Below are positions 4,138 to 7,637 of a DNA stretch of 14,330 bases, piece by piece. The stretch's first letter is position 1, and each line of letters starts with the position of its first letter. This DNA comes from a virus. Location of the stretch: UHGV virus genome UHGV-0200011. One strand, 5' to 3'. The notes under the pieces are model-generated. The model was not told the origin of the DNA, ran no database searches, and saw only the letters and a list, made by a program, of their open reading frames with translations. Made by a program: the position numbers and the translations under genes.

Positions 4138-4637
4138 AGCCGGGTGGCATCTGCATCATTGTGATTGTTGCGTTGGTAGGTTCGTTTCTCGCTGGCAGTG
4201 AGTGGACGAACCGCAGCTGGAAAATAAAGTGGGCTGACCGGGATAGCGCGGAATCTTCACAGGAAGCGAATGCACAGACCGCAGCTCGTATGATTGAACA
4301 AGGGCGAACAATCGCCCGGGATGAGGCCGTTAAAGATGCTCAAGCTCAAGCAGCGAGCGCTGCCGTTACTTCTGCTGGCCTGGCTACCACTGTTAAGCAG
4401 CTGCGCGCCGAAGCAACAAAACTCGCTACCCACATGGACGCCGCAAAGCACACCGCAGATCTCGCCACTTCCGTCAGAAGCAAAACAGCCGGAGCCAACG
4501 CAGCAATGCTTGCCGACATGCTCGGAAGCCTTGCAGAAGCAGCTCGATATTATGCTGGACGATCTGACGAAAGCTACCGGGCAGGAATGACGTGTGAGCG
4601 GATTTACGAATCAGTGCGACTGTCGAATAACCAATAG
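4134..4637 (+). CDS. Rz: Rz-like inner-membrane spanin (i-spanin)
   Basis: GTG 4134 overlaps the endolysin stop (GTGA) and is in frame with the 4041..4637 ORF. N-terminal TM helix ICIIVIVALVGSFLAGS followed by an Ala/Gln-rich coiled-coil-like periplasmic domain. The ORF-track start at 4041 lies inside the endolysin gene. Confidence 0.7.
   Translation: MKPGGICIIVIVALVGSFLAGSEWTNRSWKIKWADRDSAESSQEANAQTAARMIEQGRTIARDEAVKDAQAQAASAAVTSAGLATTVKQLRAEATKLATHMDAAKHTADLATSVRSKTAGANAAMLADMLGSLAEAARYYAGRSDESYRAGMTCERIYESVRLSNNQ
4336..4590 (+). CDS. Rz1: Rz1-like outer-membrane lipoprotein spanin (o-spanin), embedded in Rz in the +1 frame
   Basis: Signal peptide with lipobox LLSSC, then a proline-rich mature region, wholly inside Rz in another frame. 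Start chosen at MLKLKQ (4336); in-frame alternatives exist at 4294 and 4321. Confidence 0.65.
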   Translation: MLKLKQRALPLLLLAWLPLLSSCAPKQQNSLPTWTPQSTPQISPLPSEAKQPEPTQQCLPTCSEALQKQLDIMLDDLTKATGQE

Positions 4638-4809
4638 GCGATTCATGCTGCTAGTTTTCGTCCTCTTGTCGATATGGCTCTGTCGGCAACATGAGGAACG
4701 CCGCTGGCCTTCGGTCGGCTTTAATGTCTCATCGCTGATGCTCATCACCGAGCAACCGGCACGCAGTAAGGGGCTGCGCTGAGATAAGAGCCGAGAATTC
4801 AATCAAATC

Positions 4810-4832
4810 GCCTCGCACTCGCGGGGCTTTTT
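4810..4832 (+). terminator. Intrinsic terminator downstream of the lysis cassette
   Basis: GCCTCGC-actc-GCGGGGC followed by TTTTT; stem arms identical to the tR'-like terminator at 1918-1942. Confidence 0.55.
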
Positions 4833-4844
4833 AACAACTGAGGA

Positions 4845-5048
4845 ATGAGCATGACAGTAGTTCTTACAGCTAAGCAGATTGAAGACCTGGCAGCCTTCGC
4901 GAAGGAAGATGGCCAGCCTCAATACACCATCACCACCGGCACAATTCCTGAATTTGAAGCTGATAATGGTGAGATTATCCCCGGTTATACCGGACTTATC
5001 GCCTATTCAGAATCACTGGATCACGGTGTGTTGCAACTCGACGACTAG
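4845..5048 (+). CDS. Hypothetical acidic small protein (67 aa)
   Basis: ORF MSMTVVLTAKQIEDLAAFAKEDGQPQYTITTG... with GAGGA upstream; the alternative start at 4851 has better spacing. No family recognised. Confidence 0.5.
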   Translation: MSMTVVLTAKQIEDLAAFAKEDGQPQYTITTGTIPEFEADNGEIIPGYTGLIAYSESLDHGVLQLDD

Positions 5049-5092
5049 CGGCATTACAGCAGGCATTCACTGAGTGCCTGTGATAATGCAAC

Positions 5093-5111
5093 AGCCCGTA
5101 CAAAACGGGCT
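5093..5111. terminator. Hairpin between convergent genes (possible bidirectional terminator)
   Basis: AGCCCGT-acaaa-ACGGGCT (7-bp stem) between the + strand 67-aa gene and the minus-strand 204-aa gene, which stops at 5117-5119; a second hairpin CAGGCA-ttcactgag-TGCCTG lies at about 5059-5079. Confidence 0.4.
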
Positions 5112-5116
5112 TGGAT

Positions 5117-5731
5117 TTATCTCTTTGTTGCGTTCATGGTCACATGGTAAACGAATTGGCTAAATTGGTTATCCCAGCGCCCATTATGATTAGCTGCAAC
5201 TAATTGCATTAACGCCTGCATTAACTTGCTGAACAGCAAGATTAACTTAAGTCTGTTTTTTGAACTGTCACTATCTAAGGAAACTTCTTCGGTTAATTGA
5301 TTCTCGGCGTTAAAAATACCCAGTTTTGATTCTTCCATGCTGGGTTCCGTTGGATGCTGTTTAAAGTATTCAGTCAGAGTATCCTTCAGGCTCTGGATCC
5401 TTGAATCAGCAATGCTTTGTATTGATGGATTGTGTGCAAGGTCATTACGCATTGAGTTGATGGTTTTAAGTGATTTCATAAGTTCCGGGGGGATTCCCAG
5501 GTTTCCCGCCATGGATATTTTAGTATTACATTCGATTAAAAGTTTGTTTTTATCTCTTCCAAAGAGATCTTGGCAGTCACAGCATGCGCATATCCATGCT
5601 TCGACCATGCGCTCACAAAGTAGGTGAATGCGCAATGTAGTACCCACATCGTCATCGCTTTCCACTGCTCTCGCGAATAAAGATGGAAAATCAATCTCAT
5701 GGTAATAGTCCATGAAAATCCTTGCATTCAT
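5117..5731 (-). CDS. HEPN-like (R-x4-H motif) hypothetical protein; candidate abortive-infection/defence moron
   Basis: 204-aa minus-strand ORF with a strong RBS (GGAGGA 4 nt before the ATG), embedded in an AT-rich island. Contains SMRNDLAHN (R95-x4-H100) resembling the HEPN / Abi-type motif. Opposite orientation to all flanking phage genes. Confidence 0.7.
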   Translation of the reverse strand: MNARIFMDYYHEIDFPSLFARAVESDDDVGTTLRIHLLCERMVEAWICACCDCQDLFGRDKNKLLIECNTKISMAGNLGIPPELMKSLKTINSMRNDLAHNPSIQSIADSRIQSLKDTLTEYFKQHPTEPSMEESKLGIFNAENQLTEEVSLDSDSSKNRLKLILLFSKLMQALMQLVAANHNGRWDNQFSQFVYHVTMNATKR

Positions 5732-6116
5732 AAATCCTCCAGGTAGCTATATGCAAATTGAAACAAAAGAGATGGTGATCTTTCTAAGAGATGATGGAAT
5801 CTCCCTTCAGTATCCCGATGGTCAATGCGCTGGATATGGGATAGATGGGAATATGCTGATTTTTATGGGACAGAGTTGCGAACTGTTCCCAACTAAAATC
5901 ATTTTGCACGATCAGCGCACTACGAACTTTACCCACAAATAGTCAGGTAATGAATCCTGATATAAAGACAGGTTGATAAATCAGTCTTCTACGCGCATCG
6001 CACGCGCACATCAAAGAGAGTCTTTCAGTAGTGAGCCTGGGTGATGCCGTTAGGTTGCGTTTACCTCTCGGGCGGCATTGCCGTGCGACAGGCTCACGCC
6101 TAAAAGGAAATATTCC

Positions 6117-6845
6117 ATGAGTAACAAAATCATTACGCTATCTGGCGCTGCTAATGAAGTGCTTTATGCGCTGTTTTTCCGTGGCGCGTTGCTGTCTGGT
6201 GATCTGCCTTCTAAATCTGGCACAGCCGAATTGCGCGAGCTTGGTTTTGCTGAAACCAGACACACAGCAACTGAATACCAGAAAGAAAATCACTTTACCT
6301 TTCTGACATCAGAAGGGCAGAAATTTGCCGTTGAACACCTGGTCAATACGCGTTTTGGTGAGCAGCAATATTGCGCTTCGATGACGCTTGGCGTTGAGAT
6401 TGATACCTCTGCTGCACAAAAGGCAATCGACGAGCTGGACCAGCGCATTCGTGACACCGTCTCCTTCGAACTTATTCGCAATGGAGTGTCATTCATCAAG
6501 GACGCCGCTATCGCAAATGGTGCTATCCACGCAGCGGCAATCGAAACACCTCAGCCGGTGACCAATATCTACAACATCAGCCTTGGTATCCAGCGTGATG
6601 AGCCAGCGCAGAACAAGGTAACCGTCAGTGCCGATAAGTTCAAAGTTAAACCTGGTGTTGATACCAACATTGAAACGTTGATCGAAAACGCGCTGAAAAA
6701 CGCTGCTGAATGTGCGGCGCTGGATGTCACAAAGCAAATGGCAGCAGACAAGAAAGCGATGGATGAACTGGCTTCCTATGTCCGCACGGCCATCATGATG
6801 GAATGTTTCCCCGGTGGTGTTATCTGGCAGCAGTGCCGTCGATAG
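6117..6845 (+). CDS. Hypothetical protein (242 aa) immediately upstream of cos
   Basis: ORF with AAGGAAA RBS 8 nt before ATG 6117 (the ORF-track start at 6078 lies inside an upstream palindrome). No family recognised; no obvious TM segment or signal peptide. Confidence 0.65.
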   Translation: MSNKIITLSGAANEVLYALFFRGALLSGDLPSKSGTAELRELGFAETRHTATEYQKENHFTFLTSEGQKFAVEHLVNTRFGEQQYCASMTLGVEIDTSAAQKAIDELDQRIRDTVSFELIRNGVSFIKDAAIANGAIHAAAIETPQPVTNIYNISLGIQRDEPAQNKVTVSADKFKVKPGVDTNIETLIENALKNAAECAALDVTKQMAADKKAMDELASYVRTAIMMECFPGGVIWQQCRR

Positions 6846-6903
6846 TGTGCAATTGATAATTATTATCGTTTGCGGGTCCTTTCCGGCGATCCGCCTTGTT
6901 ACG

Positions 6904-6915
6904 GGGCGGCGTCCG
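6904..6915. other. cosN cohesive-end site (12-nt, GGGCGGCGTCCG)
   Basis: ACGGGGCGGCGTCCGCGC...TCTCGCTATTTATGAAAATTTTC...TTTCCGTTCTTCTTC closely parallels the lambda left end (GGGCGGCGACCTCGCGGGTTTTCGCTATTTATGAAAATTTTCCGG...CGTTTCCGTTCTTCTTCG) as recalled, about 190 bp upstream of Nu1. Confidence 0.6.
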
Positions 6916-7091
6916 CGCAGATTCTCGCTATTTATGAAAATTTTCTGGTTTATGCCATTTCCGTTCTTCTTCTTGTTTACTCATTGTTTTTGTTAAAAAC
7001 GTCCTCTCTCCAGAAAGGAAATGCTGAGCAAGGAAAACGGAAGTTTACCGTTGATTGTTTCCTTTCTCTGTTTTTTTGCCAGGAGTAAGCC
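6916..7091 (+). promoter_or_regulatory. cosB-like terminase-binding region (R-site-like TTTCCGTTCTTCTTC and related repeats)
   Basis: Region between cosN and Nu1 contains lambda-R3-like and related motifs (GTTTCCTTTCTCTGTTTTTT). The ORF-track entries here (6814..6996, 6870..7088) are Phe-rich and almost certainly non-coding. Confidence 0.5.
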
Positions 7092-7637
7092 ATGGAGGTT
7101 AACAAAAAACGCTTATCCGAAATTTTCGGGGTAAGCGTCCGAACGATTCAGAACTGGCAGGAGCAAGGTATGCCGGTTGTCCGCGGTGGTGGCAAAGGTA
7201 ATGAGGTTCTCTTTGAATCTGCTGCTGCAATCGAATGGTACAGTGCGCGCGATGCAGCTATAGAAAATGAAAAGTTGCGGAAGGAAGTTGAAGATCTCCG
7301 TATCGCTTCTGAGTCCGATCTTCAACCTGGCACGATTGAATATGAGCGACACCGACTTACGCGAGCTCAGGCTGACGCTCAGGAATTAAAAAATGCAAAA
7401 GAGTCCGCTGAAGTGGTGGAGACCGCATTCTGCACGTTCGTGCTGTCGCGGGTAGCCGGAGAAATCGCCAGCATTCTCGATGGAATACCTCTGTCGGTTC
7501 AGCGGCGCTTCCCGGAGCTGGAGAACCGACATATTGATTTCCTCAAGAAGGACATCATTAAGGCCATGAACAAGGCAGCTGCGCTGGATGAAATGATACC
7601 GGGGTTGCTGAGTGAATATATCGAACAGTCAGGTTAA
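7092..7637 (+). CDS. nu1: Terminase small subunit Nu1
   Basis: 181-aa protein MEVNKKRLSEIFGVSVRTIQNWQEQGMPV..., highly similar to lambda Nu1 as recalled; AGGAG RBS. Confidence 0.92.
   Translation: MEVNKKRLSEIFGVSVRTIQNWQEQGMPVVRGGGKGNEVLFESAAAIEWYSARDAAIENEKLRKEVEDLRIASESDLQPGTIEYERHRLTRAQADAQELKNAKESAEVVETAFCTFVLSRVAGEIASILDGIPLSVQRRFPELENRHIDFLKKDIIKAMNKAAALDEMIPGLLSEYIEQSG

Follow-up and report, generated by a model that had tools for sequence, protein, structure and literature searches.

The 14,330-nucleotide viral DNA UHGV-0200011 (the whole stretch analysed, hereafter the window) carries, between its lysis cassette and its packaging genes, a gene for a 242-amino-acid protein that corresponds to orf66 of phage phi80. 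In this protein a winged-helix head is joined to a stalk akin to the central tail fibre J and to a C-terminal tail that resembles the extreme C-terminus of tape-measure proteins, and we tentatively regard it as a late, dispensable, probably trimeric protein that would dock on the phage tail tip by mimicking the tape measure while bearing a variable head. As far as the literature searched shows, the mimicry of J and the tape measure, the mosaic family defined by the C-terminal tail and the structured RNA leader in front of the gene have not been described. The gene itself is not new, being present in phi80, in DH5alpha-type strains and in the probiotic strain Nissle 1917.

Identity and distribution of the gene

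The reading frame is a real gene, beyond what chance would produce. It opens with an ATG at 6117, preceded 8 nucleotides away by a Shine-Dalgarno sequence (AAGGA, 6104-6108), and closes with TAG at 6843-6845. A mechanical list of open reading frames (ORFs) opens the frame earlier, with a TTG at 6078; all homologues begin at the position of the ATG (MSNKI, MGQKI or MAEKI). Pairwise ratios of nonsynonymous to synonymous substitution rates (dN/dS) against eight homologues of 65-98% identity were 0.12-0.51, and a search of 5.8e9 proteins returned 658 homologues, mostly from Citrobacter, Salmonella and E. coli. These results, with the Shine-Dalgarno sequence and the conserved ATG, uphold an original prediction, made from the DNA letters alone, of a well-formed gene with a good ribosome-binding site. 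The family is narrow, since an exhaustive search of 1.84e9 cluster representatives gave just 107 clusters at 50% identity.

Positions 5049-6912 of the window are 97.5% identical to the right end of phi80, and the protein shares 98% of its amino acids with PHI80_66 (AFV29203.1), which is labelled 'ORF x171.28; similar to N15 gp59'. NCBI gives the name 'Fur-regulated protein' to matches of 73-98% identity. PHROG 17079 is matched over residues 1-242 of 242 (E 7.8e-170). Judged by its sequence, the gene thus already stands in the catalogues as a member of the phi80 Orf66/PHROG 17079 family, and its product has no assigned function. The prediction that no family could be assigned was accordingly too broad, but it stands for curated functional families: NCBIfam gave nothing above cut-off, PADLOC no match, and Pfam a single marginal match, to a tail-tip family. 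A CcdA antitoxin profile (15.6 bits against a cut-off of 100) and a Trns_repr_metal profile (E 0.17) were dismissed.

Carriers among complete E. coli genomes numbered 99 of 5426, including Nissle 1917 (100% nucleotide identity; protein accession WP_000066210.1) and DH5alpha-type strains. The copy in the latter is 97.9-98.3% identical, which equals the identity of phi80, and it is therefore presumably derived from phi80. The genes of phi80 and Nissle 1917 are the same gene with the same neighbours (tai and ati) in the same place before cos; the difference in Nissle 1917 is that the gene precedes another packaging module, a DUF1441 TerS with an HK97-like head. The annotated phi80 orf65 (PHI80_65; locus L001, 3934-4233, minus strand) lies antisense to the conserved leader and to the beginning of orf66, both of which it overlaps. 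The matching region of the window holds just a 51-amino-acid minus-strand ORF (6138-6293), and orf65 is probably not a real gene.

A C-terminal tail resembling that of tape measures

In the 32 tails of the family that were compared, the P-G-G motif is invariant (32/32) and is followed by hydrophobic, aromatic and basic residues. Using hhalign, the profile of these 32 tails could be matched over its whole length to the very C-terminus of N15 gp16 (96%, E 3.9e-9), and it also aligned with phi80 H (84.5%). When two tails of the family were searched by tblastn against 2.3 Gb of phage genomes, the annotated matches outside the family fell mostly under tape-measure genes, namely those of the phi80/mEp213, N15/HK225, Aeromonas, Pectobacterium and Cronobacter groups, and the remaining ones were unannotated or hypothetical proteins. 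A word-indexed protein search with the tail profile gave family fragments only and no tape measures, and tblastn of the C-terminal 155 amino acids against phage genomes found phi80, Fraca and one Aeromonas phage only. As a relationship between sequences, the link to tape measures holds at the level of profiles and of the family, where the resemblance covers the docking segment; the window sequence taken alone falls below significance.

What the protein has in common with the C-termini of lambda gpH, N15 gp16 and phi80 gp16/H is an amphipathic helix, (P/A/D)GG, hydrophobic or aromatic residues and then basic ones, placed at the C-terminus. In lambda, residues 818-849 of gpH are seen by cryo-electron microscopy to form a coiled coil of three chains, which is bound to the gpI trimer that plugs the tail tip (PMC12617516, PMC11101478). 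The protein is otherwise unlike a tape measure: it measures 242 amino acids against 850-1050, it lacks the long helical body that sets tail length, and its gene lies outside the tail block and not between G/T and M.

The J-like stalk and the winged-helix head

The middle of the protein is related to the fibre part of J. The window protein passes the gathering score of the Pfam tail-tip family PF09327 marginally (Table 1), and the same family is matched by 26 of 50 family members (best E 4.7e-13). Members matched phi80 J 1048-1137 by blastp (E down to 3e-10, in a database of 10 sequences), relatives with an FN3 head align to phi80 J 775-875, and the family profile matches residues 1137-1164 of the F2-pyocin fibre. 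The likeness to J consists of fibre modules (NGxxFIKDAxI...AKI and YNIxxG...ADKFxV) and AHS-like helices, and the stalk is about 33% identical to the J of phi80 itself over 67 residues. Unlike J, the protein has neither the hub (the N-terminal 770 amino acids) nor a receptor-binding domain, the order of the modules is permuted, and the gene lies between lysis and cos instead of after I in the tail block. In lambda gpJ, an obligate trimer, the corresponding part makes up the helical shaft and the straight fibre (PMC12617516, PMC11101478).

The structure of the monomer was modelled with AlphaFold2 from a 50-sequence alignment. Residues 10-77 had a predicted local distance difference test (pLDDT) above 90, residues 128-167 fell below 50, and residues 181-230 formed a long C-terminal helix. 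The disorder of the modelled stalk may stem from the trimeric nature of its J counterpart. In the model, the N-terminal domain has a MarR-like winged-helix fold. No MarR or helix-turn-helix (HTH) model of Pfam or NCBIfam matched it, however, and it differs from MarR, HxlR and PadR regulators (identity 11-24%) in being a domain of about 80 amino acids that is acidic and without the flanking MarR dimerisation helices; of the marks of a MarR-type transcription factor, neither a hidden Markov model match nor the dimerisation helices nor a basic surface was found. The isoelectric point (pI) of the domain is 5.9 with a net charge of -2, and that of the whole protein is 5.3. The winged-helix domain also occurs as a stand-alone protein of 75-105 amino acids in virulent and jumbo phages, and since these phages have no lambdoid tail, this suggests a function residing in the head alone and needing neither stalk nor tail. 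The stand-alone carriers comprise Vi01-like Klebsiella and Salmonella phages and Erwinia, Dickeya and Pseudomonas jumbo phages.

A mosaic family with a constant tail

Across the family the tail is constant and the head variable. The genes lying directly behind the leader yielded 110 distinct complete proteins; the tail was present in 57 of these, with a winged helix (31), FN3 (11), an 'MKxLSLQ' domain (8) or others (7) as the head. The minimal form is mEp213_076, which consists of winged helix and tail only; N15 gp59 is composed of FN3, stalk and tail, its FN3 being like that of J; and the 'Fur regulated protein' of Fraca has two heads, with an extra N-terminal domain. These three occupy the same slot from lysis to cos and all carry the PGG tail; Fraca has, in addition, the leader in common with mEp213 and the J-like module in common with N15. 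The tail of N15 gp59 (RPGGIIWQATRRNR) closely resembles that of the N15 tape measure (QPGGLIWNATNRR).

The slot between lysis genes and cos

At the loci examined, the gene always follows the lysis cassette, lies on the strand of the late operon and precedes packaging genes. Three kinds of packaging module come after it: a lambda-type cos with Nu1/A, as in the window, where Nu1 begins at 7092; a second cos type with the DUF1441 TerS, as in Nissle 1917; and an HK97-like module with HNH and Terminase_4. Lambda, which has the same cos, carries bor, p78 and p79 in the slot and lacks the gene, and its sequence is shared only from the palindrome onward. The gene is therefore cargo and not a component of packaging, and a conserved lambda-type packaging accessory protein was not recognised in it. 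The original prediction had placed it immediately before cos, in a region that varies widely among lambdoid phages. Both points agree with our results, as the palindrome and cosQ lie just 3' of the gene and the same leader precedes many different first genes. It had also reserved its doubt for a match to a structural or packaging protein present regardless of the neighbouring gene: the gene does occur whatever its neighbour, with real similarity to J and the tape measure, but it encodes no conserved structural or packaging protein.

Where HNH and Terminase_4 follow, the gene next to the slot protein is a 77-amino-acid gene (MRLTVLDDDPGRK...; L038, 5687-5920) or a glycosyltransferase-like gene of about 485 amino acids (MQVTIDGVPY...; L036, 5648-7162; weak Glycos_transf_2 match), apparently translationally coupled. 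Both genes start in overlap with a GGAGG located right at the stop codon upstream; they were seen in HK97-like prophages, and each is also found alone behind the same leader.

The neighbourhood in phi80 was studied by He et al. (2024, PMC11364771). The product of orf63 is TaiEcA, a tail-assembly-inhibition protein made constitutively by the lysogen, and that of orf64 is its late-expressed antidote AtiEcA, which alone protected a heterologous phage. Tai proteins act on the C-terminal fibre region of J. A two-hybrid assay showed TaiSalB and AtiSalB of Salmonella to interact; for the other pairs, binding between cognate partners is a hypothesis. Among single deletions of orf62, 64, 65 and 66, a drop in titre was reported for orf64 alone, and phi80 with a deletion spanning orf62-66 still forms plaques; orf66 is therefore dispensable under laboratory conditions and is not the anti-Tai gene. 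Late-expressed genes that are not essential, for example ati, are also housed in the slot.

Proposed role and alternatives

In the reading that we tentatively favour, a Q-dependent late transcript would yield the protein along with the head and tail proteins, and its C-terminal half would drive trimerisation. The tape-measure-like tail (about residues 215-242) would then dock on the tail-tip machinery, either the gpI homologue or the initiator complex. The variable head would thereby come to lie at the tail tip or inside it, and the protein would be an accessory that is borne by the virion or ejected. Late expression would fit the position of the gene on the strand of the lysis and packaging genes and behind a terminator-like hairpin, through which Q-modified polymerase is expected to read. 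The late operon of phi80 is described in PMC11364771. The proposal further draws on the tape-measure likeness of the tail and its constancy under varying heads, on the trimer formed by the equivalent residues of lambda gpH, on the tail match within N15 and on the dispensability of the gene in phi80.

Several points weigh against this proposal. The hhalign comparison with lambda gpH is weak (15%), yet in register with 822-849, and a BLAST search that used the tail of the window protein itself retrieved phi80 orf66 and N15 gp59 and nothing else. The acidity of the winged-helix head does not point to any ligand, the lumen of the phage tail would be an odd place for an FN3 head or a stalk of the fibre type, and a mimic of the tape measure made beside the phage's own tail proteins might poison assembly. 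No phenotype has been reported for the deletion of orf66 (PMC11364771). Finally, phi80 and mEp213 share one tape-measure tail and differ in the tails of their slot proteins, so that tails are not strictly matched within a genome. Such matching is seen in N15 and not in phi80 or mEp213, and so is compatible with a self or a non-self target; the present data fit either incorporation and delivery after docking or action as a decoy or competitor.

The main rival explanation, possible though not probable in our judgement, is that the protein is no part of the virion and works as a decoy or a competitor where tail assembly is contested. As a bait like the J shaft or the tape measure it would soak up Tai- or Tab-type defences of prophages, phage-inducible chromosomal islands (PICIs) or P4-like satellites, or else it would poison the tail-tip initiator of rivals. 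All the evidence for mimicry applies here as well, the stalks resemble the very region of J that Tai targets, and He et al. (PMC11364771) state that there may be further anti-Tai versions against non-cognate Tai. Slot and family are also hypervariable and mosaic, as arms-race genes would be, and in phi80 and the window the gene adjoins tai/ati. On the other hand, minimal members such as mEp213_076 have no J-like module, the invariant part is the tape-measure-like tail, against which no known defence is reported, and PADLOC found nothing; in the experiments cited above, phi80 facing its own Tai was reported to lose titre only on deletion of orf64. Most loci have no Tai nearby, although a decoy for foreign Tai would need none. 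A DNA-binding function, as a transcriptional regulator or a cos accessory factor made oligomeric by its coiled-coil C-terminal half, is unlikely. The MarR-type winged HTH fold of the head would suit it, as would the short distances that separate the end of the gene from a conserved palindrome (8 bp) and from cosQ (28 bp). The acidity of domain and protein and the absence of HTH or MarR matches in Pfam would not, and neither would the three unrelated packaging systems that follow, including HNH/Terminase_4 with intervening genes before the terminase. Lambda has the same cos without the gene, the family exchanges the winged helix for FN3 or other heads while retaining its tail, and the phi80 gene is, by the published deletions, dispensable.

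The two remaining explanations concern the neighbours and the name of the gene. The original prediction described a divergent arrangement and a possible functional pair (effector plus regulator or immunity) with the upstream 204-amino-acid gene, which it called a HEPN-like moron. That gene is TaiEcA, a published defence, and the partner overlooked between it and the 242-amino-acid gene is the 76-amino-acid plus-strand gene of AtiEcA, so that the two are not directly divergent. Physical closeness in phi80, Nissle 1917 and the window speaks for a regulator or immunity partner of TaiEcA, but the antagonist identified by the phi80 experiments is AtiEcA. The co-occurrence analysis that had been proposed was run on 73 loci (71 viral contigs with relatives, plus the phi80 and Nissle loci), queried with the neighbouring proteins of the window. 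A Tai-like gene lay near the homologue at 17 of them. Tai and Ati were both present beside 14 copies of at least 97% identity and beside one variant sharing the N-terminal domain alone, and two further loci (L033, 3998-4468, minus strand; L058, 3997-4467, minus strand) had a Tai relative 27% identical to TaiEcA. At 56 of the 73 no Tai-like gene was found within the fetched flanks, a few of those contigs ending early upstream, and L009 holds a 99.6%-identical copy of the gene with neither Tai nor Ati. The Tai and Ati queries matched other ORFs and not the 242-amino-acid gene. Neither obligate co-occurrence with Tai nor a genetic requirement for the Tai/Ati system thus emerged from the counts and the published deletion data, and pairing with the 204-amino-acid gene is not supported; we hold it to be extremely improbable. 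It is also very unlikely that the gene serves lysogenic conversion under Fur control, being expressed by the prophage under iron limitation and perhaps tied to the use of FhuA/TonB by phi80. This would account for the name that NCBI and RAST give to the family, 'Fur-regulated protein (ORF x171.28)', and a Fur-box-like palindrome (7-1-7, 14/15) does adjoin the gene. This sole strong 7-1-7 match, however, lies downstream, 3' of the stop codon and inside cos, is kept in lambda without the gene and is missing where the gene is not followed by cos. No site with up to 3 mismatches to the 19-bp Fur consensus was found anywhere in the window and no sigma-70-like promoter upstream of the gene, which has a leader of the late operon in front of it, in many cases with a terminator immediately before that. 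We infer that a Fur-titration clone bearing the palindrome gave both ORFs (x171.28 and x171.8) their name, and the name 'Fur-regulated protein' is probably an artefact that arose historically from the palindrome in cos.

Returning to docking on the tail tip, it is conceivable, if doubtful, that the invariant tail is a transferable 'tail-tip address' taken from the tape measure and that the slot is a hypervariable library of heads on one tag. If so, the products of this slot in lambdoid, N15-like and HK97-like phages would either join the siphophage tail tip, at or inside it, and be delivered together with the DNA, or contend there with the tape measure. Such virion-borne effectors or assembly mimics, expressed from behind a conserved structured RNA leader, would make up a class not described before. 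A tail acting as docking tag would explain a widespread mosaic family that makes up about half of the slot-encoded proteins, would offer a way to bring foreign domains into siphophage tails, and would add a player to the tail-assembly conflicts (Tai/Ati, Tab) encoded alongside. With Tai/Ati and Tab the gene shares the phi80 neighbourhood and the arena of tail-tip proteins; it differs from Tai/Ati in showing no sequence similarity, no obligate co-occurrence and no reported phenotype.

The structured leader

Conservation in the roughly 115 nucleotides 5' of the ATG exceeds that of the protein, and these nucleotides are kept before diverged or unrelated genes. The leader pattern AGTCTTTCAGNNGTGAGCCTG was found in at least 120 viral contigs, usually after an intrinsic terminator and before many different first genes. 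The predicted fold has a minimum free energy of -48.3 kcal/mol (z -2.45), and the Shine-Dalgarno sequence lies partly within the outer helix P0. In an alignment of 46 distinct sequences, compensatory changes were seen at 5 of 6 pairs of helix P2, one of which occurs as GC 16, CG 14, UA 7 and UG 7 times. The covariation score of P2 was reached by 0 of 500 shuffles, and its pairing collapsed from 97% to 32-55% when the partner strand was slid. As the 5' half of the outer helix is fixed by the search pattern, P2 alone constitutes independent evidence of covariation. No Rfam match was found in 4600-7200 at E up to 1. The hairpin is a candidate cis-acting RNA element, separate from the protein, and could serve in RNA processing, in stabilisation or in the insulation of translation.

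The cos boundary and neighbouring genes

The features of the region are listed in Table 1.

Table 1. Positions of the gene, its domains, leader and neighbouring features in the window
Feature	Position	Strand	Basis
242-amino-acid gene, phi80 orf66	6117-6845	+	Shine-Dalgarno sequence; PHROG; phi80 and Nissle comparison; dN/dS
N-terminal winged-helix domain, codons 1-85	6117-6371	+	AlphaFold2 model
Helix 98-121 and beta-rich J-related stalk, codons 86-180	6372-6656	+	Pfam, blastp, profile
Pfam PF09327 Phage_Tail_Tip match, residues 119-151	6471-6569	+	23.4 bits against a cut-off of 22
Long helix 181-230, then P-G-G, I-W and basic residues; codons 181-242	6657-6842	+	AlphaFold2, tail profile
Conserved slot leader with hairpin 6020-6107	5992-6116	+	Folding, conservation, covariation
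Leader helix P0	6020-6028/6100-6107	+	Predicted fold
Leader helix P1, GTGAGCCTG / CAGGCTCAC	6031-6039/6089-6097	+	Predicted fold
Leader helix P2	6040-6049/6073-6082	+	Predicted fold, covariation
TaiEcA (phi80 orf63), 204 amino acids, tail-assembly-inhibition defence	5117-5731	-	99% identical to phi80 orf63
AtiEcA (phi80 orf64, 'ORF x171.8'), 76 amino acids, anti-Tai	5712-5942	+	98% identical to phi80 orf64
Palindrome TGATAATTATTATCG	6854-6868	.	Fur-box 7-1-7 consensus, 14/15
cosQ, GGGTCCT	6874-6880	+	Read from sequence; lambda/phi80 end alignment
12-nucleotide cohesive end GGGCGGCGTCCG	6903-6914	+	Read from sequence; lambda/phi80 end alignment

The palindrome lies 8 bp past the stop codon and 5 bp before GGGTCCT, which we take to be cosQ from established knowledge of lambda. 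PMC4669245 additionally supports the identity of cosQ. The stretch from cosQ to the cohesive end (6874-6914) bounds the slot on its 3' side. The palindrome matches TGATAATNATTATCA at 14 of 15 positions, is perfect in lambda (TGATAATCATTATCA) and is also found in phi80, N15, mEp213 and the Nissle-type cos. It is kept after the gene in both cos types and absent where another gene, and not cos, follows. From this distribution it belongs to the left side of cos and is not a promoter element of the 242-amino-acid gene; Fur, IHF and terminase are its putative users. A promoter-like pair (TCGATA-16-TATTAT, 6839-6866) overlaps it.

The genes of TaiEcA and AtiEcA overlap by 20 nucleotides at their 5' ends, on opposite strands. 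The earlier label 'HEPN-like' had some basis, as TaiEcA has an R-x4-H motif (RNDLAH, residues 95-100) and gave weak matches to CARF-HEPN defence profiles (E 0.004-0.012); no mention of this resemblance was found in the accessible part of PMC11364771. The Tai-like genes of L033 and L058 occupy the matching place, divergently oriented, upstream of slot proteins that have themselves diverged, and no Ati is recognisable beside them. The place of phi80 rha is occupied in the window by a 67-amino-acid plus-strand ORF (4845-5048, PHROG 9518), which recurs near the slot in several related contigs.

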